A stretch of DNA of 64,000 bases from a plasmid. Each line of letters begins with the position of its first letter. Within the stretch, counting starts at the first letter, position 1. The position numbers and the translations under genes were made by a program. The notes beneath the pieces are model-generated. The model did no database searches, was not told where the DNA came from, and saw nothing but the letters and a program-made list of their open reading frames with translations. The DNA lies in the NCBI RefSeq assembly GCF_056746865.1, contig NZ_JBWKMP010000003.1. The stretch is one strand, 5' to 3'. This document shows, one piece after another, positions 30,242-54,639 of this stretch.

Positions 30242-31749
30242 TGGCTGGTGGTCGTAAGATTAAGTGCGTCACCAGTGATCCACGTTGGCGCGATATGGTT
30301 ATCAGGTATCGATACAACTTTACCCAGGCGGTTGTCGATATTTTTGGGATGTTCCCCTCCCACCAGCAGCAGCAGATCATTCAGTCAGTGCAGGAGACGG
30401 GGAGCAGGACGACCGTTACGTCCGGACACGGAACGGGTAAGTCGTCCCTTACCGCGATGTTGCTACTAATTTTTATGATCCTGTTCCCCGACGCCCGCGT
30501 CATTATTGTTGCGAACAAAATAGGCCAGGTAAAAACAGGCGTATTCAAATACGTGAAACAGTTTTGGGCGAATGCTGTTAAGCGCCACGGCTGGTTACAG
30601 ACCTATTTTGTCCTGTCTGACACCATGTTTTATGAGCGTTCCCGTAAAGGGATATGGGAAGTGCTCTGTAAAGGTTATCGACTCGGTAACGAAGAGGCAC
30701 TGGCGGGGGAGCACGCGGAGCATTTACTGCTAATCCTTGATGAAGCATCGGGCATATCCGATAAGGCGATTAACGTCATGACGGGGGCGTTAACGCAGAA
30801 AGATAACCGTATGCTCATGCTTTCCCAGCCTACGCGTCCAAGCGGTTACTTTTATGAATCTCACCATTCAAGGGCAAAGGCAGAAGGCAATCCGGAAGGT
30901 GTCTGGACGGCAATAGTCCTTAACTCTGAAGAATCACCATTCGTTGAACCGAGCTTTATTCGTGAGAAATTGCTGGAGTACGGCGGCAGGGATTCGCTGG
31001 AGTACATGGTTAAGGTGCTGGGCCAGTTCCCGCGTGCAATTAACGGGTATTTGCTTGGTCGTGATGAGTGCGACCGCGCCGCACGGCGTAAAGTGTTGCT
31101 GGAGAAAGATTGGGGCTGGGTAGCGACCGCTGACGTCGGTAATGGTCGCGATAAATCGGTGCTCAATATATGCAAAGTATCCGGTTATCGTGAGAAACGA
31201 CGCGTTGTGAACTTTAAGATACTGGAGATGCCAGGCACTATGGACCCGTTGGCTTTTGCCGACTTTATCTATAACGAATGCACTCCTGATAAATACCCGA
31301 ACATCACCATTGCTGTGGATGCTGATGGCTTTGGTTCAGATACGTGTGCGCAGCTTGTCCGCCGTGGTGCTAATCCCGTTCGCATCCGTTGGGGTAAGCC
31401 TATGTTTGCGCTAAGAGACAGAGAACGCTTTGTCAATCAGCGTGCTTACGCCAATATTATGGCAGGGGATGCCATTAAATCCGGGCGTATGCGTATCGAT
31501 AGTGACCCCAAAACCGCAGATCAGGCATCAAAAATCCCGTATATGCTTAACGAAGAAGGGAAGGTAGCGATGATGCGCAAGGAGCACATGCGGCAGAAGT
31601 TAAACATCAAGTCACCGGACAGATGGGATACCTACTGCTTCACTATGCTGGTGGATTACGTGCCTGCTAATGAAGACATTGGCGCAGAACTCGCAACATT
31701 CCGCGATCAGGTGTTGGCAGAAGTGGATATTCCTGATATTGACATTTAA
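30241..31749 (+). CDS. PacB-like terminase large subunit
   Basis: 502 aa; P-loop GHGTGKSS, Walker B LLLILDEASG, C-terminal nuclease-like region with VDADGFG; coupled to the upstream small-subunit gene. Confidence 0.75.
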   Translation: MAGGRKIKCVTSDPRWRDMVIRYRYNFTQAVVDIFGMFPSHQQQQIIQSVQETGSRTTVTSGHGTGKSSLTAMLLLIFMILFPDARVIIVANKIGQVKTGVFKYVKQFWANAVKRHGWLQTYFVLSDTMFYERSRKGIWEVLCKGYRLGNEEALAGEHAEHLLLILDEASGISDKAINVMTGALTQKDNRMLMLSQPTRPSGYFYESHHSRAKAEGNPEGVWTAIVLNSEESPFVEPSFIREKLLEYGGRDSLEYMVKVLGQFPRAINGYLLGRDECDRAARRKVLLEKDWGWVATADVGNGRDKSVLNICKVSGYREKRRVVNFKILEMPGTMDPLAFADFIYNECTPDKYPNITIAVDADGFGSDTCAQLVRRGANPVRIRWGKPMFALRDRERFVNQRAYANIMAGDAIKSGRMRIDSDPKTADQASKIPYMLNEEGKVAMMRKEHMRQKLNIKSPDRWDTYCFTMLVDYVPANEDIGAELATFRDQVLAEVDIPDIDI

Positions 31750-31750
31750 A

Positions 31751-31770
31751 AGCCCCGGCGATTCGGGGCT
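31751..31770. terminator. GC-rich hairpin between convergent pacB-like and the repressor-candidate gene
   Basis: agccccg-gcgattc-ggggct. Confidence 0.4.
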
Positions 31771-31786
31771 TGTGGGTGGCTTGCGA

Positions 31787-32824
31787 TTACCAGAGTTTTG
31801 CCGCGTACATCGTTTGTGTGAATGTGTACCCATAGCGTTCTTCAACGCTTTTACCGTATTTTTTCCTGGCTTCAGTAAGGCGGATGCCTGTCAGGTCATC
31901 GCCGGAGGCAATCATAACTTCCAGTAGTTCCAGGTCCATTTTATCCAGCCTTGCCATTGCATCTTTAGCCTCTTGAATTTTCCGGCTAACGATCTGGTGT
32001 ATGGCTGGATCGGCTTCGGCCAGCATTTTATCTGATTTGTTTTTTAAACTCTGATTGCGGATATCAATGTTTCTCAGGATATATGACTTCACGACGTAGC
32101 TTGGCTGCTGCTTTTCCAGATCACGAACCCGATAAAGGTCAAATTCGCCGAGAAGTCCGCACGGAAGCGGTTTAATGCCAGTGTAAATGGTAAGGGTGCG
32201 GCGCTCACCAACGTTGTTAACAACGGGAATCTCTGTGTTTGCTTTTTTTGCAAAGATCAGCGCACCGTGCGTACCCACTCTGAAGCGTGAAAGTCCATTG
32301 TTGCCCTCAATATTGGTGGTAATCACCACATCGGTATAACCTTCTTTTCTTGCGCGGTATACCTCGCCCTCACGTTCAGCGGCGAAGAATCTGCGTTCTT
32401 CTTCAAGCGCACCGACAACCTGTGAAAATATCCTGTTTTTCATGCTTTTCTTTATAGTTTTATCGTATTTTTTCAGCAGGTCTTCGCGCGTAAATGTTCT
32501 CGTTGTGGTTGCGCTTTGCATAACGATGTGCGTACTCTGATTAGTATCCTCAACAATGAATGGGATCGGTAAATAAACCGACTCAACAATGTTTGAGGCT
32601 TTGTCATCATCCTTGCGACACAGATCAACAAAGGCTTTCCATTCGGCTATGCATTTTTCAGCTTCTTCTAATACAGCCGGATCATGTGTTAATGCAACAT
32701 GGCGAAATTCCTCGCCAACATAACTGGTATCATGGAAAACAGAGTTTGCGACCACCAGCTCTTTCCACCTTTCAGCGGTTTGCAGGAACCGTTTGTACTC
32801 ATTCTCGATCGACTTCTTACTCAT
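31787..32824 (-). CDS. Hypothetical 345-aa protein; candidate immunity repressor (P1 c1 position: convergent with pacB, next to lox/cre)
   Basis: Best start is the internal ATG (MSKKSIENEY) with RBS aggaa; an operator motif TGTTAGAAAA lies immediately upstream on the coding strand; no recognisable domain by eye. Confidence 0.45.
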   Translation of the reverse strand: MSKKSIENEYKRFLQTAERWKELVVANSVFHDTSYVGEEFRHVALTHDPAVLEEAEKCIAEWKAFVDLCRKDDDKASNIVESVYLPIPFIVEDTNQSTHIVMQSATTTRTFTREDLLKKYDKTIKKSMKNRIFSQVVGALEEERRFFAAEREGEVYRARKEGYTDVVITTNIEGNNGLSRFRVGTHGALIFAKKANTEIPVVNNVGERRTLTIYTGIKPLPCGLLGEFDLYRVRDLEKQQPSYVVKSYILRNIDIRNQSLKNKSDKMLAEADPAIHQIVSRKIQEAKDAMARLDKMDLELLEVMIASGDDLTGIRLTEARKKYGKSVEERYGYTFTQTMYAAKLW

Positions 32825-32843
32825 TATTCCTACTCGATTTAGT

Positions 32844-32853
32844 TTTCTAACAT
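32844..32853. promoter_or_regulatory. Operator motif TTTTCTAACA in the promoter of the repressor-candidate gene
   Basis: Dispersed motif family member; a second copy at about 32927-32941. Confidence 0.45.
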
Positions 32854-33019
32854 AAAAGTCCTGTGACAAATTTATGCTGAATAACAAGGTGAGTAAAGGA
32901 TAAAACCGCTTTTTTTTGATTGTTCCTATTAGAAAATGTAACCAGGAGCGGCTACCGCATGGCTGACGGATTTGCGAAGTGATCTGGTCGGTGTTTTTTT
33001 GGGAAAAAAGTTCCGATTT

Positions 33020-33053
33020 CTAACTTTAAATAATTGGCATTATTTAAAGTTAG
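33020..33053. promoter_or_regulatory. lox-like recombination site (13-8-13): CTAACTTTAAATA ATTGGCAT TATTTAAAGTTAG
   Basis: Perfect 13-bp inverted arms around an asymmetric 8-bp spacer; same architecture as loxP and 9/13 arm identity to it; 150 bp upstream of the Cre-like gene. Confidence 0.7.
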
Positions 33054-33204
33054 GCTATAATCTCCAGTAAACAGGCAGTATTGACAAGGATGAAAAATCA
33101 TGCCTCGAATCAAAGGCTTGAATTTTGAAAATTAACTTATAACTACCCTGTCAGTTTTCTATTTTTCACGTAGCGTTATCTGTATATAGAGGTTTAATAG
33201 TTTC

Positions 33205-34233
33205 ATGGGTGAACTAGTTATCTCCGGCGGTTCTGGTGGTTTTCTGCGCGATATTGGCACCGAATACCAGGAAGCTGCAAAAAACTTTATGCAGTTCATG
33301 AACGACCAGGGAGCTTATGCTCCAAATACGCTTCGAGATCTCCGTCTGGTGTTTCATTCCTGGGCGCGGTGGTGTAATTCGCGCCAGCGCCCCTGGTTCC
33401 CGATTACGCCGGAAATGGCCCGCGAGTATCTTCTCCAGTTGCATGAGGCCGATCTGGCCTCGACCACCATTGATAAGCACTATGCCATGCTTAACATGCT
33501 GCTTTCGCAATGTGGCCTCCCGCCGCTGTCGGACGATAAAAGTGTGTCTCTGGCCATGCGGCGCATCCGGCGCGAAGCGGCAACGGAAAAAGGCGAGCGA
33601 ACAGGCCAGGCTATACCGTTGCGGTGGGATGATCTGAAATTGCTCGACGTGTTGCTGTCCCGTTCCGAGCGGCTGGTGGACCTGCGCAATCGGGCGTTTC
33701 TCTTCGTGGCATACAATACCCTGATGCGTATGTCAGAAATCTCGCGCATCCGCGTCGGAGATCTGGACCAAACAGGTGACACTGTAACGCTGCATATTTC
33801 ACACACGAAGACCATCACGACCGCCGCCGGACTTGATAAGGTGCTTTCTCGTTACACTACCGCCGTACTGAACGACTGGCTGGAGGTGTCCGGACTTCGA
33901 GAACATCCGGACGCGGTGCTATTCCCGCCAATACACCGCAGTAATAAGGCCAGAATCACGACAACGCCCCTTACTGCACCTGCAATGGAGAAAATATTCA
34001 GCGATGCCTGGGGGTTGCTGAACAAACGAGATGCCACGCCGAACAAAGGAAGATACCGGACGTGGACAGGCCATAGTGCGCGTGTTGGTGCGGCAATTGA
34101 TATGGCTGAGAAACAGGTGTCAATGGTCGAGATCATGCAGGAAGGTACATGGAAAAAGCCCGAAACACTTATGCGATATTTGCGCCGTAGCGGGGCATCC
34201 GTTGGTGCAAATAGTCGCCTGATGGACTCATAA
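33205..34233 (+). CDS. cre: Cre-like tyrosine site-specific recombinase
   Basis: Colinear similarity to P1 Cre as I recall it (SWARWCNSRQRPWFP..., NMLLSQCGLPPLSDDKSVSLAMRRIRRE, WTGHSARVGAAIDMA, C-terminal Tyr in LMRYLRR); ORF-track start is non-ATG. Confidence 0.9.
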   Translation: MGELVISGGSGGFLRDIGTEYQEAAKNFMQFMNDQGAYAPNTLRDLRLVFHSWARWCNSRQRPWFPITPEMAREYLLQLHEADLASTTIDKHYAMLNMLLSQCGLPPLSDDKSVSLAMRRIRREAATEKGERTGQAIPLRWDDLKLLDVLLSRSERLVDLRNRAFLFVAYNTLMRMSEISRIRVGDLDQTGDTVTLHISHTKTITTAAGLDKVLSRYTTAVLNDWLEVSGLREHPDAVLFPPIHRSNKARITTTPLTAPAMEKIFSDAWGLLNKRDATPNKGRYRTWTGHSARVGAAIDMAEKQVSMVEIMQEGTWKKPETLMRYLRRSGASVGANSRLMDS

Positions 34234-34277
34234 ATTAATTTTCTAACAACCTTTTTAGACAGTGCATTTTAATGTAA

Positions 34278-34306
34278 AGTACCCTCGCCTATTGCGGAGG
34301 GTACTT
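34278..34306 (+). terminator. Strong hairpin after cre-like (no T-run)
   Basis: aagtaccctcgc-ctatt-gcggagggtactt. Confidence 0.4.
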
Positions 34307-34650
34307 TGCACAATCGTATTACGGAATCAAAACGCTTCACTGTTGACGGTTACACCATAACCTTCACTGCGGGCGTTAAGCGCGACCAGGCGGTCGTGGT
34401 GTTCGGTGTTATGACCGGACTTGATGCCGTTCCCGTATTTACCCTCGAAAAAAACTGGCGAAATCTGGAGGAAGCTGAACGCTACGTCCGGAAAGTAACC
34501 GTCATTGCTGCTGAAAAACTCCTGGCCCACTATCAGGAAAATTATCGCGCTATGACCGAGAAAATTAACCATGTTTTCACTCGCCCCACCAGCGGCTTCA
34601 TTGCCCCTGATGCGAATGCCGGGCGCTATCCGGCAAGGGGGCGCAAATGA
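34306..34650 (+). CDS. Hypothetical protein (start uncertain, TTG or internal ATG)
   Basis: 114-aa ORF. Confidence 0.3.
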   Translation: MHNRITESKRFTVDGYTITFTAGVKRDQAVVVFGVMTGLDAVPVFTLEKNWRNLEEAERYVRKVTVIAAEKLLAHYQENYRAMTEKINHVFTRPTSGFIAPDANAGRYPARGRK

Positions 34651-35135
34651 AAACTTACTACCCATCCCTGAACTGTTATCCAACCACTAATCCTGAGCTG
34701 TCAGGGAAACTTCTGTCCCTCCTGGCTGATAGTCCTGATGAATGGCATAAGCCTGGTGATATCAACACACAGTTCCCTGAGTACGGGTGTATCCGCACCC
34801 GAAATGAGCTGAAGAACCTCATTGCTCACGGTTTTGTCCGTCACCGTAGCGGGAAAGGCTATCAGTTGGCTATCCCACAAGGAGAGGCAAGAGAACTCTT
34901 TGGCTATCGAGAAAGCCAGACGCAAGCGCGGGTGATCGCAGAAATTATCCGTAATGGCAGCGTCTATGCCCGCAAATTCTGGCTGTCTGGCGGTGGTGAT
35001 GCATCACAGTTCTTGCGTGCTGTGCGATCGCTGGAGGAACAAGGTGTTATCGAGAATACCTGCGTCTCCGTTCCGACCGCTCCGCATATCAAACGCCGGA
35101 TTTATACATTTACCCGGAGAGCTAAAAAGCAATGA
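34647..35135 (+). CDS. Hypothetical protein (162 aa)
   Basis: ATGA-coupled ORF in an operon with dut. Confidence 0.45.
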   Translation: MKTYYPSLNCYPTTNPELSGKLLSLLADSPDEWHKPGDINTQFPEYGCIRTRNELKNLIAHGFVRHRSGKGYQLAIPQGEARELFGYRESQTQARVIAEIIRNGSVYARKFWLSGGGDASQFLRAVRSLEEQGVIENTCVSVPTAPHIKRRIYTFTRRAKKQ

Positions 35136-35626
35136 TTAACGTGAAAGTGAAACGCCTTCATCCGGCGGCAAAACTCCCCGTTTACGCCACCGCCGGATCG
35201 GCGGCGATGGATTTTGTTGCTGTTGAAATAACGCCGGGTATCGATAGCAACGGCGCTATTTCCTCAAGCTGGTGGGTGCATACCGGCCTCGCTATGGCGA
35301 TCCCTCCTGGCTGGTGTCTGAAACTTTATCCTCGTTCCGGATTGGGCTGCAAAAAGCATACGCGCCTGGCTAACTGCGTAGGAATTATCGACTCCGATTA
35401 TCGCGGTGAAATCAAAGCAAAACTGATTACAGATCCCGGTGGTGAAGGCGTTTGCCTCAAGCCAGGAATGGCGGTCATGCAAGGCATTTTTGAGCGTGTT
35501 GAACCGGTATCGCTGGTAGAAGTTGATGAACTCGATGAAACAGAGCGAGGTGCTGGTGGCTTTGGTAGCACATCGGAAGACCGCATTGAAATCAAGCGTA
35601 CACCGCTTCAGTACGCAAAGTTTTAA
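35132..35626 (+). CDS. dut: dUTPase (trimeric dUTP pyrophosphatase)
   Basis: All hallmark motifs: AAMDF, PRSGLG, GIIDSDYRGEI, RGAGGFGSTS. Confidence 0.85.
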   Translation: MINVKVKRLHPAAKLPVYATAGSAAMDFVAVEITPGIDSNGAISSSWWVHTGLAMAIPPGWCLKLYPRSGLGCKKHTRLANCVGIIDSDYRGEIKAKLITDPGGEGVCLKPGMAVMQGIFERVEPVSLVEVDELDETERGAGGFGSTSEDRIEIKRTPLQYAKF

Positions 35627-35640
35627 GTAGAGGAAAGGCT

Positions 35641-36291
35641 ATGAATAACATGCCAACGAAAGAGCTTTTTAAGTTCCTTCCCAAATACAAAGCTCACAAA
35701 AACGTTAGTGCATCGAAAATTAAAAATGTTGTTATTTTCGGAGTAACTGATGCCCCACTTTGGGGCTGCATCGAACTCGTTGAACCAAAAGGGGCAACAG
35801 TTTGTGTTGACGCAATGTTTTTACAAAAACACCGACCAAAAACTGGCGGGTATCTGATCGTTTATGAAAACGGTTATCTGTTCTATGCCCCGGAGAAACC
35901 ATTTGAGGAATGCTATGGCCTGGTTAACGACGCCTCCAAAAATGGAACCACGGTCATCATTACGGATGACAACGGCGTGATGATTAATCTTACTGGGAGC
36001 GTAACTATTTCTGCTGGTGGCATCACCACCCAGCAAGAAGAAATCGACCTTGAAGCAGCCGACTTCTCTGATGCGCTAATGTGGTTGAAGGAAGGCAAGA
36101 AAGTTGCCCGACGCGAGTGGAAAGGCGAAAAGCAATTCTGCTGGTTAGTTCTCGCTGGAAGCGTCAATTTACACGGCATTCACGTTCCTTATGGTGACCA
36201 TTTTGTATTGAAAGATGCACAAAATATGGACAGCGTTTGGTTGCCGTCTGTGGATGATTTACTGGCCTGTGACTGGTTTGTTGTGGAGTGA
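35641..36291 (+). CDS. Two-domain protein with a C-terminal DUF2829 (Tad2-like) domain
   Basis: C-terminal FSDALMWLKEGKKVARREWKGEKQFCWLVLAGS ... VWLPSVDDLLACDWFVVE fits the DUF2829 pattern; N-terminal ~140 aa unassigned. Confidence 0.6.
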   Translation: MNNMPTKELFKFLPKYKAHKNVSASKIKNVVIFGVTDAPLWGCIELVEPKGATVCVDAMFLQKHRPKTGGYLIVYENGYLFYAPEKPFEECYGLVNDASKNGTTVIITDDNGVMINLTGSVTISAGGITTQQEEIDLEAADFSDALMWLKEGKKVARREWKGEKQFCWLVLAGSVNLHGIHVPYGDHFVLKDAQNMDSVWLPSVDDLLACDWFVVE

Positions 36292-36297
36292 TTTAAC

Positions 36298-37104
36298 GTG
36301 GAAAATACCAAGAACATTCAATATCGCTTGCGTAACGGCCTGCTGGTGGATGTAAACGATGATATGTCCCTGCCCTTTGCCACCATTGAGCGAACCATCC
36401 TTACATACCTGGGCTTAGACGAAGAGTTAGATAGTGAGAATGGCATTGCTATCTGGCGTGACGGAAAAACGGGAGTCAGACGTTTTATTACGGCAAGAGG
36501 CATTCAGTGCACACAGGAAGAATTGTTTGAACTGGCGCAGTCTTATGGATGCATCGCGTTAGATCCCCTGTATGACCCAGCCATAGCACAACAACTCATT
36601 CGAGAGCTGTCGCTTTCGGTCACGCCAATAATCTTCCGCCAGGGAACCTTAACCGGCACATGGCGTGTAGAACGCATCTCTAAATATCAGCCATATAATA
36701 TCCATTTGAACGGCACTATTACTGGTGTGGATCAACCAGTAGCAGGTGAAAACAAAGACCTGGAACTTGCAGTAATGATGGCAGCTTGTCGCGTGCTTGG
36801 CCTGGGCAAGCAGATGTTTATCCATTTCCCAAACGGCGCGGAAGGCGAAGTAGAGCTGATTTCCTGCGACTTTTCCTTAACCTGGATGCTTGATGAATTC
36901 CTGGACAAAACAGTATTCCGTGCTGAAGAACTGGATATGTATGTCACCTCAAGTATTCCTAATGACGTGAAAGTTGAGGCCATCGCTACAGCCAGGGCGA
37001 AATGCCGTGCGGCGATTGCAGAACAGGCCAAAGAAGAACAGTCCGATGAAGTCGCGGCAGATGTGGAGGCAGAGGTAGCGGAGGATGCTGATGCTGACGC
37101 CTAA
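36298..37104 (+). CDS. Hypothetical protein with acidic C-terminal tail, coupled to the terminase-like paralog
   Basis: 268 aa, GTG start per ORF track; overlaps the next gene by 20 nt. Confidence 0.45.
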   Translation: MENTKNIQYRLRNGLLVDVNDDMSLPFATIERTILTYLGLDEELDSENGIAIWRDGKTGVRRFITARGIQCTQEELFELAQSYGCIALDPLYDPAIAQQLIRELSLSVTPIIFRQGTLTGTWRVERISKYQPYNIHLNGTITGVDQPVAGENKDLELAVMMAACRVLGLGKQMFIHFPNGAEGEVELISCDFSLTWMLDEFLDKTVFRAEELDMYVTSSIPNDVKVEAIATARAKCRAAIAEQAKEEQSDEVAADVEAEVAEDADADA

Positions 37105-38191
37105 AAACATCACCGAATTACCAGAGTGGAGAGAGCTGGTAAGCAAATATAGCCATGACTGGGCATTAGCAGCAGAAGAGTTGATGGGTGTTAAGTTAAC
37201 CCACCAGCAAAAGCTAATTGTTGAGGCGATTCAACAAAAAGGTTCAGCAGTCAGCGTCACCACTCCTGAAGGGATAGGCCAAAAGACGGTTATCGCTATA
37301 ATTAGTATTCTTTATACAATCCTGATGCCTGAGTCTAAAACGGTTATTGTTTCCCCAAAGTTCTATAATTGTCGCAGGCAAGTTATCCAATACATAAGTA
37401 CGTATTGGGATAGAGTCAGTAACAGAATCCCATTGCTGGGAGAATATTTTAAAGTCGACGGAAACGGCATCAATCATCGTTACCGGGAATATTGGGGCTG
37501 CGAAATTAAGCCATATCACCGAAATTATGAGGAAGGTTTCGGTGGATATTATGCTGAACATCTTTTAATCATTGTTACGGAGGCGGCTCTTGCTGGCGAT
37601 CGGCTATTCAGCATGTTAAGAGCATCGTTAGTAAGTGACGATTCACGTATACTTTTAATGTCCGCTCCTTCAGAGGAGGAGCATGGACACTTTTACGATT
37701 CCCATCATGGTCGTGCAAAATCAGAAGAAAATCCATGTGGTATTTATACAGCCATCAAGCTGAACGCAGAAGATACCCCCATTATTTCACAAGGTTATCT
37801 TGATAACATTGCAGAAATATATGGTGGTAAAAACAGCGATTACTACCGTCGCATGATTCTTGGTGAGTTTCCAGGTATTAGGGAGGCTGTTCTTGAATCA
37901 GATATGCCGAAAACAATGCGCTTTTCGATGCCTGATGGTAGTGAATGGATAATGCCATTACGAGTGATAGCCCGGCATCATGCACAGCACCACGCCAAAA
38001 AACATGGCGTTACAACATTGGAGTGGTTGAAATCGCACACCATTCCACTCTTCACTGCAGATCACAATGCTATCGTTGAGTGGGCAAAAACAATTCCGTG
38101 GGAGAATGTCGCTGAATACGCCCACATGCTAAAACCGCCGAAAGACAGGCAAGAAATTAGCTGGCTGACAGCAGAAAAAATCATTGAGTGA
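37085..38191 (+). CDS. Terminase-large-subunit-like ATPase-domain paralog with degenerate Walker motifs and no nuclease domain
   Basis: Alignable to the PacB-like gene (HQQKLIVEAIQQ / HQQQQIIQSVQE; HGHFYDSHHGRAKSEENPCGIYTAIKLNAEDTP / [33 protein letters not shown]), but P-loop reads GIGQKT instead of GTGKS and Walker B reads VTE instead of LDE; 368 aa without the VDADGFG nuclease region. Confidence 0.6.
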   Translation: MLMLTPKNITELPEWRELVSKYSHDWALAAEELMGVKLTHQQKLIVEAIQQKGSAVSVTTPEGIGQKTVIAIISILYTILMPESKTVIVSPKFYNCRRQVIQYISTYWDRVSNRIPLLGEYFKVDGNGINHRYREYWGCEIKPYHRNYEEGFGGYYAEHLLIIVTEAALAGDRLFSMLRASLVSDDSRILLMSAPSEEEHGHFYDSHHGRAKSEENPCGIYTAIKLNAEDTPIISQGYLDNIAEIYGGKNSDYYRRMILGEFPGIREAVLESDMPKTMRFSMPDGSEWIMPLRVIARHHAQHHAKKHGVTTLEWLKSHTIPLFTADHNAIVEWAKTIPWENVAEYAHMLKPPKDRQEISWLTAEKIIE

Positions 38192-38226
38192 TAGTAGGAA
38201 GCCCGCCTGGTTGAGCGGGCTTCTTT

Positions 38227-38607
38227 TCAAATATTGGAACCATATAGTTCACGTAGTTTATCCGCTACTGAAGATACGGGGATTTCACCAGTTGCAGCCC
38301 CCACCGCAAGTTCCACCAGCACGGGAGAATCATATACCTGTATACCGTTACGGCGTAGAAATAGCAGCGCACTGTTTAGCGCGGTACGCTTATTGGCATC
38401 ATTGAATATATGCCCTCTCGCTGTAGCCACCAGGTAGGTGGCGGAGACTTCGAAAAGGTCGGTGATCTCTTCGTAGGCAACTCTGGCCTGAACTCTCCCG
38501 ATAATGGCCTCTGCCCTGCCCGGATCTGACATGCCAGGCAGGCCGCCGTAGCGGCTTATATTCGCATCATGAAGCGCAATAAGTTCTTCCGGTGATATAT
38601 GCCTCAT
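38227..38607 (-). CDS. doc: Doc toxin (Fic-fold kinase) of the phd/doc addiction module
   Basis: 126 aa; [78 protein letters not shown] matches P1 Doc as I recall it almost residue for residue. Confidence 0.92.
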
Positions 38608-38828
38608 TATCGGTTAACCAGTTCCTTGTTGGTGGAGTCCAGGGTGTCAAACAGGGATGCAAATTCAGCATCCAGCGCCGCTTTTTTGTAGGCTTCGAAA
38701 GTAGCCTTGCTGACAATTACTGCTGGCTCACGGCCTCTGCGGGTGATTTCAACCTCTTCCCCGGCTTCAACATTGTTGAGCACTTCAGAAAGGTTGCCAC
38801 GCGCGGTACGGAAGTTAATGGATTGCAT
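38607..38828 (-). CDS. phd: Phd antitoxin
   Basis: [73 protein letters not shown] matches P1 Phd as recalled; stop overlaps the doc start. Confidence 0.92.
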
Positions 38829-38900
38829 AAACACCTCGTGTACTCGTTATGTGTACACAATTATAAACTTCACAGGCATAAAGCACCAGCACTTTGCAGC

Positions 38901-39290
38901 TTAAATAACCGGACAATCATCAAATTCCCCACTTCGGGCATCATTGATGACATGAGTGATCACACCAAAAACAGCATTACTGCCCGTGTATCCATCGTCA
39001 TCTACTGGTAACGCCTCTTTCTTCCCGGTGCTTAAGTCCTCCAGGTGCTGGCGCGGATACTTCCTGTATCTCTTTATGCGATATTCACCCTCCATAGCGC
39101 ACACAAGCAGAGAACCATCAACCGGAGTAAGCGAGGAATCAACCACCAGCAAAGCACCCTGCAATATTCCCTCACGGTGATGGCTATCAGCTGCCCGCAT
39201 GAAGTAGGTCGCTGAAGGATGTCTAATTATCTGCTGATCAAGAGAAATTCGGCTTTCAACATAATCCGCCGCAGGAGAAGGGAAGCCCAT
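38901..39290 (-). CDS. humD: HumD-like UmuD' homolog
   Basis: GFPSPAADYVESRISLDQQIIRHPSATYF aligns with UmuD; lacks the N-terminal autocleavage segment like P1 HumD; lies upstream of phd/doc as in P1. Confidence 0.8.
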   Translation of the reverse strand: MGFPSPAADYVESRISLDQQIIRHPSATYFMRAADSHHREGILQGALLVVDSSLTPVDGSLLVCAMEGEYRIKRYRKYPRQHLEDLSTGKKEALPVDDDGYTGSNAVFGVITHVINDARSGEFDDCPVI

Positions 39291-39413
39291 AGCGTTTTAC
39301 CTCAATGATACTGTTTATTCATACAGTATACATTGAAAAGGCATAGTTTGTGAAAGCGGGGTTTGTAGGCGCGCCACGCTGGGGGCTAATCACATTTCTC
39401 CCCCATCTTGCCG

Positions 39414-39665
39414 TTATTTTTTTGGTGCATCCTCGTTCTGATACACCGGATCGCTCCCTTTTGGCAACTGGAGGCTTAACTGCCGATAGTGCCGTAACCG
39501 TTCCATGAAATAGGTGCGCAGATTCTCTGGTTGCTCGCGGGCTACCTGTTCAGCTATGACAGGTATGTTCAATCGCTCTTTGTACGCCACACCGCTGGCA
39601 GCCAGATCAACGTTAACCTTATCCCGTTCTTCCTGACTTTTAGCTGCAATATTCCAGTCGCTCAT
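39414..39665 (-). CDS. hot: Hot-like homolog of DNA polymerase III theta subunit
   Basis: [43 protein letters not shown] aligns with E. coli HolE. Confidence 0.8.
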
Positions 39666-39667
39666 AT

Positions 39668-39940
39668 TTAAGGCTCACATTTCCAGATGGTATTCTGAAC
39701 ACCCGAACCGGGCGCAAGATTAGGGTTGGCGTTCGCGCTATGCTGATATACTGCTTTAGACTTCCCATATTGCTGACAGGCTTTATCTGCGGTTTTTTGC
39801 AGGCTATCCAGGCCATACCAACCATCTGACTGTATGCTTACCTTTTCACCGTCGTTGTATTGCACCATTGCACACCCAGATATAGCCAGTATCGCACCGA
39901 CAATAACGCTTTTCCATAAAACTCTATGCAACATATACAA
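39668..39940 (-). CDS. Putative lipoprotein
   Basis: Signal peptide with lipobox LAISGC. Confidence 0.55.
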
Positions 39941-39979
39941 AAATCCCCTCTGTGAATTGAGGGGATTTTAGCATGGTGA

Positions 39980-40615
39980 TCAGATATCGGCCTTATTCGG
40001 AATTTTATCAGCCACCAGCGGCAATAAAGCCTTCGCCATTTCATGAACCAACATGGCATCAATGACGCCTAGCGTATGGCCCGGTTTAATGTTTAATGCC
40101 GCCTCAAGATGACTCCTTTCCAGGCCGCTTTTCTCGGCTTGTTTATGACGATCTGGTGTAATAACTTCGCCCAAAACGCGGCTAATTTTTTCTCGTAATT
40201 GCTGGGTGCCAGCACACTTGATCGCTGTATCGTGGAGACGGTTAACCAGTTCGCGATAAACATGCGGCTTAATGCGGATACGTTCACCGGTGACGCCCTT
40301 TCCTGGCGCTGGCACCGAACTATCCGGATAGTTGCCAGCCTCGTAAGCTACCCGCAGCCAGTGCATGAATGTTTCAGTGGACACACAACCACAGTCCACA
40401 TCGATTTTTCCGCGTTGCTGTTCCAGCCACTGCTCAAAATTCAATCTACACGTATTACTTTCATGTTGCTCTTTTTGTCTCAAGGCCAGCATCTGCTGGG
40501 CTATTTCCAATACTTCATCTGCCGTATATCCAGCACCGTGACCATACATTTCGATACGGGAAATAATCTCTGATATACGCTCTTCAGTGATTCTGGTCAT
40601 TTCTTTTTGCGCCAT
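39980..40615 (-). CDS. Hypothetical protein sharing a ~45-aa segment with the C-terminus of the DUF4406 fusion
   Basis: KPHVYRELVNRLHDTAIKCAGTQQLREKISRVL versus APHIYRELVNALRDIAAVYHGTEQLRERLAHTI in 52539-53150. Confidence 0.5.
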   Translation of the reverse strand: MAQKEMTRITEERISEIISRIEMYGHGAGYTADEVLEIAQQMLALRQKEQHESNTCRLNFEQWLEQQRGKIDVDCGCVSTETFMHWLRVAYEAGNYPDSSVPAPGKGVTGERIRIKPHVYRELVNRLHDTAIKCAGTQQLREKISRVLGEVITPDRHKQAEKSGLERSHLEAALNIKPGHTLGVIDAMLVHEMAKALLPLVADKIPNKADI

Positions 40616-40968
40616 TTCTTTTCACATTCCTTAGTCCATTTTTCAATGTTCATTTTGGCAATATCAGTCATTCCATCACCTAAGAAATACTTTTTCCGGT
40701 ATGTCTTGCACTTAAACCACACTACAACAGCCACCAGCCAGAAAATAAAAGGCCATACAGCAATACCAACGACAGCCGCGATAAAGCCCAATAGCCATAA
40801 ATGAAGCTCTCCAACTTCTGTTTCCGGCAATATTCTTAAAGAATTAAACAGCAGGCTGAACGAATGGTCGTATGCATTGGCGGTATAAGACATGCAATCC
40901 ATATAATTAAAGTCATAGCCTGCGGCTGCCGCCCATAATGGGCGGTCAAGAAAATGTTTTAGTGTCAT
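40597..40968 (-). CDS. Hypothetical membrane protein
   Basis: Two or three hydrophobic helices, basic C-terminus. Confidence 0.45.
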   Translation of the reverse strand: MTLKHFLDRPLWAAAAGYDFNYMDCMSYTANAYDHSFSLLFNSLRILPETEVGELHLWLLGFIAAVVGIAVWPFIFWLVAVVVWFKCKTYRKKYFLGDGMTDIAKMNIEKWTKECEKKWRKKK

Positions 40969-40977
40969 TATATAAAT

Positions 40978-41271
40978 TTAAGGTTCAGACCAGTTATCTT
41001 CAATAGCAATGCTTAATCTTTGTAGCCATTCTGCTAATTTCAGCATTGCTTCTCTTTCGCTTAAACCACGAGGAAAATCATCAAGCGAAATTGTTGGCTT
41101 GAATCCCCCGCAATTATCCATTTCAACTGTCAGATTTTGTTCCAGCACGGTATTTCTTACGCGGCTATTGTGCCGAAGCAAATATACTGAGCGTGATTTA
41201 TTGGTTTTGTGGTCTAGCTTATATTCGGTAAGTATCATCTGGCTTTTGCCATGATTATTACCTCTCCACAT
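40978..41271 (-). CDS. Hypothetical protein (start trimmed to the internal ATG with RBS)
   Basis: ATG (MWRGNN) preceded by tgaggtaag; the longer 129-aa ORF-track version overlaps an upstream small ORF. Confidence 0.4.
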   Translation of the reverse strand: MWRGNNHGKSQMILTEYKLDHKTNKSRSVYLLRHNSRVRNTVLEQNLTVEMDNCGGFKPTISLDDFPRGLSEREAMLKLAEWLQRLSIAIEDNWSEP

Positions 41272-41278
41272 ACTTACC

Positions 41279-41401
41279 TCACTTAATAAAACAACTCCAT
41301 GCGTAGTTGATGATTTTTTCCCACGTAATATAAATCTGCACTCCGGCAGTAAAACCAAAGCCAACAATTGCTGAAAAAATCAAAACATTTACTTTTGACA
41401 T
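41279..41401 (-). CDS. Small hydrophobic peptide (40 aa)
   Basis: MSKVNVLIFSAIVGFGFTAGVQIYITWEKIINYAWSCFIK; below the ORF-track cutoff; stop lies next to the start of 40978-41271. Confidence 0.3.
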   Translation of the reverse strand: MSKVNVLIFSAIVGFGFTAGVQIYITWEKIINYAWSCFIK

Positions 41402-41449
41402 TATAAATTTTCTCTCGGTGTCGTAGGTGATAGCACCATAATTGATAAT

Positions 41450-41683
41450 TTAGTGAGTTAGCAGTTCCATTTTTTTGATGATTTCCGCATGAGCATCATC
41501 GTTATCAACACTTAGCTCGTTTAATGCTTCTCGCACTACATCAACTTCTTCAGGCTGAAAGAAGTCGTCGCGGTAATCACCAAATAGAACCGAAACCAGC
41601 CTGCCACCAGCAACATCAAGATTGGCGCTAACAGGTGGCTCTTTGCCATCCTCAAATTCGACTACAAAAGTTAATTTTCCCAT
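41450..41683 (-). CDS. Hypothetical acidic protein (77 aa)
   Basis: ORF with conserved operon orientation. Confidence 0.45.
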   Translation of the reverse strand: MGKLTFVVEFEDGKEPPVSANLDVAGGRLVSVLFGDYRDDFFQPEEVDVVREALNELSVDNDDAHAEIIKKMELLTH

Positions 41684-41759
41684 CGTTACCCCCAGAAGAT
41701 AAAAATAGCGGCAATCGCCATAGCTACGCCTACAATCGCAAATGCTTCAGGCCAGCTTA

Positions 41760-42017
41760 TTACCTCACCTCCAGTCTCCATACCGCCTGACCAATCCGGC
41801 TGGCATGGGTATCTTTGGATACTGTTCCATCTTTAGCCAGCTCCATAAGAATTTTGCGCAAATCTGCCGAACGCCATTCTTCATCAGGAAATTCCTTCTC
41901 CATTGCCAACCGCAGATTCCAGGTTGCTATCGTGAATGGATATTCCCCGCCGAGAGCTTTCTCTTGCAGGGCAGCACGGGAACGTATCACCTGCAAAACC
42001 TTCTCTTTTACATCCAT
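41760..42017 (-). CDS. Hypothetical protein (start set at the ATG overlapping the upstream stop)
   Basis: Translational coupling with 42017-42715. Confidence 0.4.
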   Translation of the reverse strand: MDVKEKVLQVIRSRAALQEKALGGEYPFTIATWNLRLAMEKEFPDEEWRSADLRKILMELAKDGTVSKDTHASRIGQAVWRLEVR

Positions 42018-42715
42018 CATTTTGCCTCCTGCGGCGGTTCTGGTAGCGGCATCCAGTGTGATGGTATCCACGACGCACCAGGTATTACCCACCCATCATT
42101 AGCGTCAGGATGCCCCGGGATGTAAGTCGCCCATTTCATTCGCCAGTCACCTTTCCTGTCAAACTCCCTGGCAACAAGAACGGCTGTTTTGGTATCCGGC
42201 ATTCGCTCACTACAGCTTATCCAACTATCCGGAATTACCGGATAGTTGCCCGACAGCTTGTTCAACTTGTAAGTCTGGCTTACAGGTTTGGCACCATGAA
42301 GCATGGCGTCGCTCCGCTCTATGCCATCCAGCGCGATTCGCAGTGCCTGAATTGTGGTAGAGCTATCGTTTGGGGCTATTCCATATCGCTCGAATACAGC
42401 TAAATGGTTGCGCATAATCTCAGGCGTAAGCTCTTTGTAAGCATAAGCAAGAGACTCTGATGCATTATCCGGCACAACCGACGCAAGCGCGGCAGCATAA
42501 ACAGGAATAACGTCCACTTGCTCTTTATTGCTTTCATCCGTTAAAGCCCAGAATAATTTCCCGGCCGGATGTTTGAAAATATAAGCAATTGGTTCTGCTT
42601 CCAGCGATGCCAGAGCAATTTCATACGACCGTCGCTCAATATTGTCTCGCACGTCCAGGCTGCTGATACGCTCTTTGATTTCTTTAATCAGTTCTTTGTC
42701 GGTTAAAGTGGTCAT
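42017..42715 (-). CDS. DUF551-like protein
   Basis: C-terminal ...DGWVIPGASWIPSHWMPLPEPP resembles the DUF551 C-terminal motif common in enterobacterial prophages. Confidence 0.5.
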   Translation of the reverse strand: MTTLTDKELIKEIKERISSLDVRDNIERRSYEIALASLEAEPIAYIFKHPAGKLFWALTDESNKEQVDVIPVYAAALASVVPDNASESLAYAYKELTPEIMRNHLAVFERYGIAPNDSSTTIQALRIALDGIERSDAMLHGAKPVSQTYKLNKLSGNYPVIPDSWISCSERMPDTKTAVLVAREFDRKGDWRMKWATYIPGHPDANDGWVIPGASWIPSHWMPLPEPPQEAK

Positions 42716-42725
42716 AAATTATGCC

Positions 42726-42962
42726 TCAGTTGTATCCGATTGGATTAACCGCAACAAGAACGCCATCCGCGAACAAATCTTTAATGAGGTGTTCGCTCGG
42801 CTCGCCTTTTTCGTACTCTTCAATAAGGTAAGTGTCTCCATCTTCATTGATATAAACAGGAAGGATGGAGCCGTTGATAAAGTAGGTTCCGTTGTTATCG
42901 AGGATTTTTGCCTCGGCGATTTGTTTTTTGGTAAAACGCTCTTCTTTTGTCAAAGTTGCCAT
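42726..42962 (-). CDS. Hypothetical protein (78 aa)
   Basis: Internal ATG start MATLTKEERF. Confidence 0.4.
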   Translation of the reverse strand: MATLTKEERFTKKQIAEAKILDNNGTYFINGSILPVYINEDGDTYLIEEYEKGEPSEHLIKDLFADGVLVAVNPIGYN

Positions 42963-42963
42963 A

Positions 42964-43182
42964 TCAGCTTTCCTTATATGGGTTGATTTTGTTGTGCAAT
43001 GTGTTGAACGACGCCCATACCACGTCGTTATACAATTCAATAACTGGCTCAATTATTTTCCCGATTCCCCATACCAGAATTAACGGGGATATCGGTATCA
43101 TCAACACGATAAACAGAATGAGAAACAGAAATTCTGTTATTCGGCTTCTTTGCGGATATTCTTTTCTGAATAATGTTGGCAC
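42964..43182 (-). CDS. Small membrane protein (GTG start)
   Basis: RBS aaggagag 4 nt upstream of GTG; hydrophobic core FLFLILFIVLMIPISPLILVWGIG. Confidence 0.35.
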   Translation of the reverse strand: MPTLFRKEYPQRSRITEFLFLILFIVLMIPISPLILVWGIGKIIEPVIELYNDVVWASFNTLHNKINPYKES

Positions 43183-43183
43183 A

Positions 43184-43405
43184 TCACTCTCCTTTGCCCG
43201 CAGCTTTCGCCTGCTCTTTAGCAAGTCGCTCCGCTTCTCTGAAATCCCAATCCACTCGATGTGCGATATCAATTGCAGAACGCACGGTTCGTTCAATTAG
43301 CGTATCCAGGTTATCAATTGTCATTGCCATATCTGGATTTCGAGATAAAATCTCCGCCCTCTGAATCTGCCAGTTGTTACAGGTTTCAAGTAATGAGTTA
43401 GCCAT
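43184..43405 (-). CDS. Hypothetical protein (73 aa)
   Basis: Internal ATG start MANSLLETC. Confidence 0.35.
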   Translation of the reverse strand: MANSLLETCNNWQIQRAEILSRNPDMAMTIDNLDTLIERTVRSAIDIAHRVDWDFREAERLAKEQAKAAGKGE

Positions 43406-43406
43406 A

Positions 43407-43595
43407 TCACTCTCCTTTAGTGCGCAAGTGGTTTTTCCAGCGGTTTTGCGCCGCGCTGGGCTTTTTGCAAAAACCACAATCCATCATCCCGTAATATTTC
43501 ATCAACCCCATCCGTCGGTTGCTGAGTCTCACCCACTGCCAGACGCCAGGAGCGTTTCTACGAACTAACAGAATCTTTGCTTTACGGTTTTTCAT
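43407..43595 (-). CDS. Small basic protein, copy 1 of a tandem pair (MKNRKAK...)
   Basis: Shares N-terminus MKNRKAK and the DNA block ttacggtttttcat with the upstream copy. Confidence 0.3.
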   Translation of the reverse strand: MKNRKAKILLVRRNAPGVWQWVRLSNRRMGLMKYYGMMDCGFCKKPSAAQNRWKNHLRTKGE

Positions 43596-43768
43596 CTTAC
43601 AGCGTACCCTTTCTTCCGCCTGTTCTGTGACGCAGTAGGCTTACGCTTTGCGGCAAAAGCCACCTGACCAAATGGATGGAGTACCGCTATCTTATGGTTG
43701 CTAATAACCAGCTCCACCACACGCACAGGTCGCTGTAAAAAAAGTCGTTTTGCCTTACGGTTTTTCAT
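43592..43768 (-). CDS. Small basic protein, copy 2 of a tandem pair (MKNRKAK...)
   Basis: 58 aa, stop overlaps the start of copy 1 (ATGA). Confidence 0.3.
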   Translation of the reverse strand: MKNRKAKRLFLQRPVRVVELVISNHKIAVLHPFGQVAFAAKRKPTASQNRRKKGYAVR

Positions 43769-43940
43769 CGCTTTGCTCTCCTGCGTCTCTTTGCTGCTCG
43801 TCGTGCCGCTGCAATACCGGTATGGCGGCGCTTTGGTGCCGGGATGATGTTGTCAGCCATCAGGACATACGGCTTTGCAATTAGCGCAGAAGCCCAAAAA
43901 CGAGTCGGGTACGGTAACAAGCCGATACATGCCACACGCA

Positions 43941-44693
43941 TTACTCACCTCCTTTGATGCGAATGCCTGCGGCGCGGATTGCAGCGATGACTTCAGAAAC
44001 TTTGTATGCCATTACCGTTTGGTAATCATCGTGAAAATCTGTTCGATGAAGCATGCTGCTACGTTCCGGGAGCGATATTTCCCGAGCATCCAGTTCCTTA
44101 ACGCGTTCCTCCAGTTCGTAGACCCTGCATTGTTCTCTATCATCAATCAGATATACCCCAAGACATTCGCTTTCTACCCAACCGCCAAAATCATGATCGT
44201 AACGCTCACATGAAAACTCACCGTCACCGTCCTTTGTTGGAATGGTGTAACTATCTAATGGGCCACCATATGTCGGCACATTTCCCAATGTTGGATGCTC
44301 AATCCACATGAAAAATGCACGTCCGGTTATTGGGCAAATATCTGGCCGCCATTGGTTACGAACAGCCTTGGTTTCGGATAATTCTTCAGCGTGTTGTTTT
44401 ACTTCCTCAAGCTCAACTCTCAGCTTCCCTACCGTTAGCGCAATATCCTCGTTCTCCTGATCGCGGCGTTTTATGTATTGCTGGTTTCTTTCCCGTTCAT
44501 CCAGCAGCGCCAGCACGGTTTCTGGTCCGGTCAGAAATTTGAAGGCGTTGAGCGCATCAATATCCACACCGTAATCTTTAAGTTCCTGTTCACTTAACAA
44601 ATCATCATCAGCTGGCAACATTAACAGGCGTTCCATTGCTGGAATTGCACGTTCCGCCGCCTCACGCAGTGCCTGGTAATTAATTTCGCTCAC
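43941..44693 (-). CDS. ead/Ea22-like family protein
   Basis: Contains [37 protein letters not shown] and C-terminal [10 protein letters not shown], shared with 50855-51529. Confidence 0.55.
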   Translation of the reverse strand: MSEINYQALREAAERAIPAMERLLMLPADDDLLSEQELKDYGVDIDALNAFKFLTGPETVLALLDERERNQQYIKRRDQENEDIALTVGKLRVELEEVKQHAEELSETKAVRNQWRPDICPITGRAFFMWIEHPTLGNVPTYGGPLDSYTIPTKDGDGEFSCERYDHDFGGWVESECLGVYLIDDREQCRVYELEERVKELDAREISLPERSSMLHRTDFHDDYQTVMAYKVSEVIAAIRAAGIRIKGGE

Positions 44694-45352
44694 TGGTTGC
44701 CTCCTTTGCGAAGCTGGGCAGCAAAGTCAACTAACCACTCAGTCATTTCAACCTTCCCTACCAGGTCGGAACCAGGGTGCATACAGCAATCACTCTGCGC
44801 CGCTTTGAAATCCTTACACTCATATTCTTTGGCCACCAGATTTTTTGCAGCTTCTATAGCAGCATCCACCCCCTGCGCCCGCACTTCAGCCAGAAAAGCA
44901 TCGGTAGCTGGAGTTTCGCTGTGGTGTAGGGCATCGTTGATAATCATTGCAGCAACACCAGCCTGCCCTGCATCCGTGACCGACACATGCTCAAGAGTTA
45001 CGGCCATTGCGTGTTTCAGCCCAGCGTTCTCTGCCACCAGCGCAGCGATATTAGTCTCAAGCTCTGAAATTCGGCACGTGGCATCAATATTTGTGTCCTC
45101 CAAGCACTTAATTTCACCAAGCAGCTCCAGTGCAACCTTTGGGTTGAACGCGGCAACATGACGAGCGTTGTTCTCTGCATTTTTCTGTCCATCAAAGCCG
45201 GTCCATTTGATAACGTCTTCACATCGTTCATCACCGGGCGTGTGCACCGCATAAGTACCAGTATCCGTCGAAATAAATGCGACCCATTCGTCTGGTGTTG
45301 CCTTTTCTGCCGCCTCACGCAGTACCTGATAGTCAATTGTCATTCTCGCCAT
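44690..45352 (-). CDS. ead/Ea22-like family protein
   Basis: [14 protein letters not shown] block and C-terminal FAAQLRKGGNQ shared with paralogs. Confidence 0.5.
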   Translation of the reverse strand: MARMTIDYQVLREAAEKATPDEWVAFISTDTGTYAVHTPGDERCEDVIKWTGFDGQKNAENNARHVAAFNPKVALELLGEIKCLEDTNIDATCRISELETNIAALVAENAGLKHAMAVTLEHVSVTDAGQAGVAAMIINDALHHSETPATDAFLAEVRAQGVDAAIEAAKNLVAKEYECKDFKAAQSDCCMHPGSDLVGKVEMTEWLVDFAAQLRKGGNQ

Positions 45353-45966
45353 CCTTCACAGTTGTAATCACTACAGCCTTCAAAATCATATGGGCTGTAC
45401 TGCCAGGTTATTTTTCCGCAATGCGGACAATTCCAACGCACCTTCCCGCTTCGCGACTTCTTTCTTCTGTTCTGCTCTTTCAACCAGTCAGGCATGATCA
45501 AACCTGCGCCCTGAACCATTGTTCTGCGGTTAAAGTTATTGATATTGAACGTCCGGCGCTTTGCTGCATCAGCAATGGAAAATGGCAACCAAACTATTCC
45601 TGGTTCGTTTTTGTTGGCGACGCTAAAGATGGTCGCTTTACTGAAGTCATCTGTTGGCAATCCACCGTGTTGAAGCCAGTAAACATCGTTGCCGTTCCAG
45701 CTACCTTTTTTGTAGGCCACATACGCAGTGCAATCTGACTCAATCAGGCTTTCTGTAGGGATGTACTGGCAATCAACGTGCCACACAGCCATTGCATCCA
45801 CGCTATCAGCGCAAACAGGCTGATCGATATCTCGCCCACAATTCCAGGCTTTTTGGGCTTCTTCCAGCGTGTAAACATGAGCGCGATCGATATCAGAGCT
45901 ATAACCATTGCCGTTATGGCAATGGAATGAGGCGTTATTACCCACAGTTTCACGCAAGCACATCAT
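45340..45966 (-). CDS. Hypothetical protein with a C-terminal zinc-ribbon-like Cys cluster
   Basis: CPHCGK...C..C motif; start trimmed to an internal ATG. Confidence 0.4.
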   Translation of the reverse strand: MMCLRETVGNNASFHCHNGNGYSSDIDRAHVYTLEEAQKAWNCGRDIDQPVCADSVDAMAVWHVDCQYIPTESLIESDCTAYVAYKKGSWNGNDVYWLQHGGLPTDDFSKATIFSVANKNEPGIVWLPFSIADAAKRRTFNINNFNRRTMVQGAGLIMPDWLKEQNRRKKSRSGKVRWNCPHCGKITWQYSPYDFEGCSDYNCEGWRE

Positions 45967-45980
45967 GTAAAAACGGTTAC

Positions 45981-46220
45981 TCACTGGTTGCCTCCTTGGC
46001 GGAGTTGCGCTGCGATGCATGAAAAAAAAGACTCCCGAGTGTGACAGTTAAGAGCTGGTGCGAACGCCGCGTTAAGAACGGCGGCATCACAGCCGTCATC
46101 AATATAGAGCGCAATTTTTTTCTCCAGGCGCGCTTTGGCTTCCTGCAACTGCATACCCCGGCACGCACGCGGGATATAATCAGCAATTTGAGCGATAGCT
46201 TTTTCGTTCTGTTTAAACAT
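45981..46220 (-). CDS. Small protein carrying the Ea22-family C-terminal motif (AAQLRQGGNQ)
   Basis: Motif shared with 44690 and 49817. Confidence 0.4.
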   Translation of the reverse strand: MFKQNEKAIAQIADYIPRACRGMQLQEAKARLEKKIALYIDDGCDAAVLNAAFAPALNCHTRESFFSCIAAQLRQGGNQ

Positions 46221-46416
46221 GCTTCACCTCGATAGGCTTGATGGTGTCTAACAGCAGTCGGCGGCGCGTATTTTCTGCAAAATGGCGGCGTCCAGTTTCT
46301 TTGTGGTAAAACTCGTTTTTGCCGACGACCCACATCCGCTCTGTTTGGTGCAGTTTTTTTACCTTCGGGCCATCTTTGGTGATCACGGTACCGGTATGGG
46401 TTTTTACGATTGTCAT
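46213..46416 (-). CDS. Hypothetical small protein
   Basis: 67-aa ORF. Confidence 0.3.
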   Translation of the reverse strand: MTIVKTHTGTVITKDGPKVKKLHQTERMWVVGKNEFYHKETGRRHFAENTRRRLLLDTIKPIEVKHV

Positions 46417-46499
46417 GCCACTACCTATTCGAACAGATGAACGAGACAGGCCGATGCTCGTCCACCTGAAAAACTGACGATTTGATGCATACTCACGGT

Positions 46500-47228: not shown

Positions 47229-47232
47229 TCCA

Positions 47233-48228: not shown

Positions 48229-48270
48229 AATGTATACCGACTCTGTTTTGTTCCGAGCGGTAAAATAATA

Positions 48271-48300
48271 TGTTAGAAAATTAAAATCAATATTCTAACA
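48271..48300. promoter_or_regulatory. Operator palindrome TGTTAGAAAATTAAAATCAATATTCTAACA
   Basis: Inverted half-sites of the dispersed motif, upstream of the minus-strand operon. Confidence 0.55.
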
Positions 48301-48332
48301 CGGTTTTGAGTGCATAAACGATGTGTTCAGGA

Positions 48333-50853: not shown

Positions 50854-50854
50854 C

Positions 50855-54624: not shown

Positions 54625-54639
54625 GTGTCATGCCATCGC

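Follow-up and report, generated by a model that had tools for sequence, protein, structure and literature searches.

Genes and control elements of the block

The window is the whole 64,000-nt stretch of plasmid DNA that was analyzed, and all coordinates count from its first letter. Positions 38227–39665 are filled exactly by four open reading frames on the minus strand, which we assign to doc, phd, humD, and hot. They are given here together with the intergenic features that accompany them.

38198–38223, no strand assigned: G+C-rich hairpin between the convergent doc and PacB-like ORF, from a terminator scan
38227–38607, minus strand: doc, Fic-fold toxin of the phd-doc addiction module, 126 aa
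38607–38828, minus strand: phd, antitoxin, 73 aa
38829–38900, minus strand: humD-phd spacer, 72 nt, holding the putative phd-doc promoter/operator (Pphd in P1)
38901–39290, minus strand: humD, UmuD′-like accessory subunit for translesion synthesis, 129 aa
39309–39354, minus strand: humD control region with an SOS (LexA) box and a promoter-like site
39414–39665, minus strand: hot, homologue of the theta subunit of DNA polymerase III, 83 aa

A preliminary description of this DNA had called Phd and Doc almost exact matches of the P1 proteins. This is borne out by comparison with translations of the P1 reference: Phd is identical in 73/73 residues (221/222 nt at the DNA level) and Doc in 115/126 residues, all 11 changes falling within residues 88–126. 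HumD agrees with its P1 counterpart in 127/129 residues and Hot in 78/83, the start of the latter being the alternative start annotated in P1.

The family assignments use the curated cut-offs of the respective models, and every one of the four proteins passes them. Doc scores 38 bits against Pfam Fic (cut-off 24) and 121.7 against TIGR01550 (cut-off 38.65), and its motif H66-IFNDANK-R74, as read in the translation, is intact and fits the pattern HxFx(D/N)(A/G)N(K/G)R. Phd scores 49.8 bits against PhdYeFM (cut-off 29.8) and is likewise above the cut-off of TIGR01552. A toxin with the Fic-fold motif is thus coupled to an upstream antitoxin gene of the Phd/YefM type, which places the pair among the type II toxin–antitoxin systems. 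Hot and HumD had been described as theta and UmuD′ homologues, and both assignments are upheld by the family models as well as by solved structures. Hot belongs to the theta-subunit fold family (DNA_pol3_theta, PF06440, 116 bits, cut-off 34.6; NF008207, 104.5, cut-off 97), with P1 Hot (1se7, E 7e-48) as its top structure match. HumD reaches 220 bits with the HumD equivalog model NF051876 (cut-off 120), and its top structure match is E. coli UmuD′ (1umu). In addition, residue 2 of HumD pairs with residue 25 of UmuD (8gmt_B), which is the N-terminus of UmuD′. HumD therefore begins where UmuD′ begins, without the cleavable arm, and the equivalog match and this UmuD′-type start together identify the protein as HumD. 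The top structure matches of Doc are structures of P1 Doc itself (3k33, 3dd7). No Rfam family was found within the block.

The stop codon of phd and the start codon of doc share one base (38607). The spacer upstream of phd is identical to P1 at 72/72 positions, and the P1 record annotates Pphd inside it (87986–88014); by this identity we assign to it a predicted autoregulated promoter/operator. The humD gene is preceded by a near-consensus SOS box, TACTGTATGAATAAACAGTA, at 39309–39328, 19 bp upstream of the ATG, with its CTGT-N8-ACAG core at 39311–39326. The box overlaps the −10 element of a promoter-like site (−35 TTCACA, −10 TATACT; 10/12 consensus positions match) and is homologous to the LexA site annotated at 87545–87564 of P1. 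Judged from its sequence, humD is predicted to be under LexA control.

Upstream of hot lies a lipoprotein-like ORF (39668–39940) whose stop codon is separated from the hot start codon by two bases, and the terminator scan found a terminator-like hairpin between this ORF and the pmgU-like gene. P1 has a late promoter, LPhot, upstream of hot, whereas a scan of the window with a consensus of the 11 annotated P1 late promoters found no match of the LPhot type: the two matches in the window, against 1.4 expected, do not lie near hot. As the Lpa protein of the window is only 34% identical to P1 Lpa, the lack of a match to P1-type late promoters is uninformative. At the other end of the block, the hairpin at 38198–38223 has a predicted free energy of −19 to −20 kcal/mol and is terminator-like on the plus strand, where TTCTTTTC comes next. 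The homology to P1 and D6 stops at this hairpin.

Gene order compared with P1 and D6

The genes between the packaging region and the far end of the cluster to which the block belongs are as follows.

28488–28880, plus strand: lpa, late activator, Pfam family BPP1_LPA
28877–30241, plus strand: pacA, packaging gene
30241–31749, plus strand: pacB, packaging gene
31787–32887, minus strand: c1 repressor gene, between pacB and rox
33021–33052, no strand assigned: rox, exact site (32/32 match)
33205–34233, plus strand: dre, Cre homologue, tyrosine recombinase, Pfam family Phage_integrase
34306–37104, plus strand: accessory genes, in order two ORFs of unknown function, dut, a DUF2829/Tad2-like gene, and an isaA-like gene
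37085–38191, plus strand: PacB-like ORF, a 368-aa paralogue convergent with doc
39668–53177, minus strand: rest of the leftward cluster; the block forms its distal end

The block lies 6.5 kb past the end of pacB and on the strand opposite to pacAB. To call a strand minus is arbitrary by itself; the orientation opposite to pacAB (plus strand, 28.5–31.7 kb) is a true observation, and on this point the preliminary description holds. It was also right in placing a cre-like gene and an accessory island between the pac genes and the block, as this interval contains dre and five accessory genes, in addition to c1, rox, and the PacB-like ORF. The leftward cluster originates in the divergent region adjoining ref; between 39668 and 53177 it carries the lipoprotein-like ORF, a pmgU-like gene, an island of lambdoid type, pmgT, a pdcB-like gene, ppp, and small early genes.

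The neighbor of the block that had been termed a pseudo-terminase is the PacB-like ORF, which is convergent with doc and directly adjoins it. It is 33% identical to the PacB of the window over residues 8–264 (E 1e-51). In the PacB alignment the Walker A lysine is replaced (GTGKS to GIGQK), as is the Walker B aspartate (LILDEA to IIVTEA). The ORF is paralogous to the N-terminal ATPase domain of PacB, but its C-terminal ∼100 residues are unrelated to PacB. Searches of Pfam and NCBIfam with this protein gave no match, so that only PHROGs, where it matches phrog_5902 (unknown function), and the direct comparison with PacB were informative. The ORF stands where pdcA stands in P1 and D6, adjoining doc.

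Several further features of the window were recorded. A palindromic motif, TGTTAGAAAAT, has 18 matches in the window compared to 1.6 expected and often occurs in inverted pairs 19 bp apart (e.g., 24696/24715, 28381/28400, 32842/32927, 48271/48290, 53347/53366). Its sites are situated upstream of lpa, repL, c4, c1, the pdcB-like gene (48271–48300), and ref, as well as at the start of the leftward cluster (53347–53376). In P1 the operators of the C1 repressor lie upstream of lpa and near c1, which is comparable to the TGTTAGAAAAT sites, and we regard the motif as a candidate operator of the D6-type C1 repressor. Two Tad2-like (Thoeris anti-defence 2, DUF2829) proteins are encoded on the plus strand, one downstream of dre (35641–36291) and the other upstream of lpa (27425–28000). 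A tRNA cluster at 26040–26972 (plus strand; Asn-GTT, Thr-TGT, Ser-TGA, and a tRNA with the anticodon CAT) is located upstream of the region leading into lpa-pacAB, and D6 carries a similar one. There are two immI-like modules (12598–13075 and 54545–55025), in each of which an icd-like gene comes after a C4 antisense RNA (Rfam RF01695; 69.6 and 77.1 bits). A match to isrK stands ahead of the second one; D6 likewise has two icd-ant modules. Within the leftward cluster, 40347–46533 is a 6.2-kb insertion relative to coordinate 85182 of P1, located between pmgT (46500–47228) and the pmgU-like gene (39980–40615). Its part from 41759 to 45997 is 98% identical to Stx2c-converting lambdoid phages and includes Ead/Ea22 and DUF551 genes.

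In P1 (NC_005856) the genes hot, humD, phd, doc, pdcA, pdcB, lpa, pacA, and pacB share a single strand. The genes hot-lxr-humD-phd-doc occupy 86567–88647, hot to pacA fall within 86.6–91.7 kb, and lxr is the sole gene off that strand; doc ends 1.9 kb before pacA. The P1 map on which the preliminary description relied is thus right, and P7 and SJ46 have the same one-strand order from humD to pacB. The comparison with P1 that had been proposed there as a check did not reveal canonical P1 synteny: the contiguous order humD-phd-doc-pdcA-pdcB-lpa-pacA-pacB on one strand, which is typical of Punavirus (P1-type) elements, does not occur in the window. The four block genes have the same internal order as in P1. 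However, lxr, which in P1 lies between hot and humD, is absent, reducing ∼700 bp of P1 to ∼70 bp, and pdcA and pdcB, which adjoin doc in P1, do not do so in the window. Compared to P1, the segment ppp…pmgT…pmgU-hot-humD-phd-doc (80.8–88.6 kb) is inverted, and whereas it precedes lpa in P1, it follows the cre homologue in the window. Three pieces of the window (22.4–24.7 kb, plus; 28.5–31.7 kb, plus; 38.2–49.0 kb, minus) correspond to the rightward P1 supercluster pmgL-pacB. At the nucleotide level only patchy matches to P1 were obtained, and an ORF-based comparison gave at least a dozen blocks which differ from P1 in order or orientation.

A rearrangement relative to P1, as had been proposed, does therefore exist. 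One explanation would be that this element alone underwent a recent inversion or transposition which moved the block away from pacAB, and the inverted and relocated position relative to P1 would fit such an event. Nevertheless, we consider a private event very improbable, as phage D6 has the same order and orientation. The D6 record (NC_050154/MF356679; region compared, orf107–orf118 plus orf1–orf4) has lpa-pacA-pacB, c1, rox, dre, orf117, orf116, dut, DUF2829, and the isaA-like gene on one side, and pdcA-doc-phd-orf109-humD-hot on the opposite strand, followed by pmgU, pdcB, ppp, and ref. The accessory genes after dre are the same genes in the same order as D6 orf117 to orf113, and the cluster at 39668–53177 is collinear with 76.7–85.3 kb of D6. 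With blastn, positions 2384–63998 of the window align to D6 from 31533 to 1 and on from 91159 to 64825, that is, collinear over ∼61 kb in a single order and orientation.

The backbone DNA is 80–91% identical to D6, and Lpa, PacA, and PacB are 82%, 74%, and 92% identical to the D6 proteins. Dre of the window shares 94% of its residues with D6 Dre and 42% with P1 Cre. The rox site agrees with D6 rox at 32/32 positions and also equals the ends of the D6 record. The Dre recombinase originates from phage D6 (PMC8762395, citing Sauer and McDermott 2004). With Dre and rox present and with its collinearity to D6, the element represented by the window is a D6-type phage-plasmid of E. coli, D6 being a sister lineage of P1. 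Some differences to D6 exist in and around the block: orf109, which D6 has between humD and phd, is absent; pdcA is replaced by the 368-aa PacB-like ORF; hot is full length (83 aa) compared to the 48 aa annotated in D6; and the 3′ end of doc is a different allele. The D6 genome was reportedly described by Gilcrease and Casjens in 2018. Cyrano of LF82 is irrelevant to the comparison, as it is SSU5-like.

The same layout is widespread among plasmids. Phage D6 is the best phage match of the surroundings of the block; among plasmids, non-mobilizable ones of E. coli of ∼90 kb match best, with 98–99% identity. The stretch from pacB to hot is found in the same order in 96 complete plasmids, counting the records that cover at least 80% of 30300–39700 in one collinear place; they come from E. 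coli, Salmonella, Shigella, and E. marmotae, which again speaks against an event private to this element. Three annotated close relatives have the same gene order as the window. In addition, the leftward cluster is not bordered by IS elements, recombinase sites, or long inverted repeats; the search for inverted repeats around it found no long arms, just short operator-like palindromes. An artefact of assembly, with a chimeric juxtaposition of unrelated DNA, has a negligible probability: we found nothing in its favor, and independent complete circular plasmids have the same junctions, including ∼30 plasmid records with the junction of the PacB-like ORF and doc. The D6 record, the ∼61 kb of collinearity, and the 96 plasmids together make the layout a character of the lineage which is already in public records. 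Thus, position and strand of the block are fixed D6-lineage architecture, and the difference to P1 reflects no rearrangement in this element. The layout is ordinary and already known, known being taken here from the public D6 record and its annotation.

Probable exchange of the block between lineages

The block itself stands out from this backbone, as the preliminary description had suspected in speaking of modular exchange. Its DNA is 94–100% identical to P1 overall: 97.7% in the first 220 nt of hot, 95.9% in humD, 99.5% in phd, and 98.5% in the first (5′) 263 nt of doc. On the contrary, the backbone proteins are only 21–56% identical to those of P1 (PacA 21%, C1 22%, Lpa 34%, Cre homologue 42%, PacB 56%). 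The identity has sharp edges: one inside doc, one where hot starts, and one at the position of the missing lxr. The last (3′) 118 nt of doc (38227–38344, minus strand) are 67.8% identical to both P1 and D6, and beyond doc no DNA identity to P1 is detectable. At the 3′ end of doc, P1 and D6 have one allele in common and the window has another.

These sharp edges point to recombinational exchange of the module between the P1 and D6 lineages. The near-identity to P1 within a diverged backbone, as seen from the three sequences compared, is best explained by a recent homologous exchange between P1-type and D6-type elements. We weighed this against vertical descent, in which very strong purifying selection alone, without exchange between the lineages, would have kept the block P1-like. 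All four proteins have defined functions, and Phd and Doc are required to co-evolve, both of which would favor conservation. However, with the noncoding spacer identical at 72/72 positions and only 1/222 nt different in phd, synonymous and noncoding sites are conserved too, and the identity drops abruptly both within doc and where hot begins. Identical noncoding DNA and sharp breakpoints make selection alone an insufficient explanation. Moreover, the products of the neighboring essential genes pacA and pacB have diverged from P1 to the extent given above, and the same phd-doc DNA is present on hundreds of conjugative and mobilizable plasmids. Taking these points together, we regard vertical descent without exchange as quite improbable.

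The exchange of phd-doc is probably not confined to the two phage-plasmid lineages. Its DNA was found, with 90–99% identity, in 1260 plasmid records, of which 537 are typed as conjugative or mobilizable, and an extension of the exchange to other plasmids is again the best explanation of these sequences. The cassettes on other enterobacterial plasmids differ from the block in that they lack adjoining humD and hot. It is precisely in this region that relatives of the window differ, with an additional ORF between humD and phd in D6 and CP104667 and an additional ORF between humD and hot in AP027414 and CP104667. In NZ_CP085065.1, a 99.5%-identical relative with a D6-type backbone, the type I genes hsdM, hsdS, and hsdR replace humD-hot beside phd-doc (16660–22740). 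The P1 record likewise links phd-doc to the hsd flanks of EcoDXXI and R124. The simplest reading is that P1-type elements, D6-type elements, and other plasmids have repeatedly engaged in homologous exchange of the module.

Inside doc of the window lies a sharp recombination breakpoint: Doc residues 88–126 are altered, with 11 changes, and Phd is unaltered. A more far-reaching idea is that hot-humD-phd-doc may act as a hot spot where lineages recombine repeatedly, with the selfish phd-doc cassette as its anchor, and that the present copy may be a functional chimera. Such a chimera would combine a diverged C-terminal third of Doc (11 of 39 residues changed) with an unchanged Phd, beside a degenerate PacB-like ATPase which replaces pdcA. 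If this were true, either feature could alter toxin–antitoxin regulation or add an accessory function at the junction, but we judge the idea as a whole to be improbable. In our view it is highly probable that the observations are jointly accounted for by a D6-type element with a lineage-fixed layout whose P1-like block arrived by exchange.

Proposed function and significance

The functions of the block can be proposed from the corresponding P1 genes, which are well studied, and in this respect nothing new is encountered here. In P1, Phd neutralizes Doc, and both proteins autoregulate their operon by repression. After loss of the plasmid Phd is degraded by ClpXP, which leads to post-segregational killing; Doc is a kinase of the Fic fold that phosphorylates EF-Tu and halts translation. 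P1 HumD is made upon cleavage of LexA, can substitute for UmuD′, and acts together with the host UmuC in translesion synthesis. Hot of P1 binds the proofreading subunit epsilon of DNA polymerase III as theta does and can substitute for theta.

By analogy, phd-doc of the window would be a self-regulated type II toxin–antitoxin addiction module, and humD, which encodes a UmuD′ homologue, would be SOS (LexA)-controlled; hot encodes a theta homologue. Thus, we suggest that the block serves as the maintenance and DNA-damage accessory cluster of the family. It forms the far end of a leftward cluster of ∼15 kb running from beside ref to doc, which converges with the rightward dre operon, with the hairpin between them. 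Within this arrangement hot would be transcribable from repressor-controlled promoters, and humD as well as phd-doc would retain promoters of their own.

Beyond correct annotation the importance of the layout is slight. The element should be compared with D6 and not with P1, and when this is done the apparent rearrangement disappears. What remains is textbook mosaicism, that is, a maintenance and SOS module nearly identical to P1 in a diverged backbone of the D6 type. The breakpoints of this module can be mapped to within a few bases, which makes it useful for studying gene flow among phage-plasmids.
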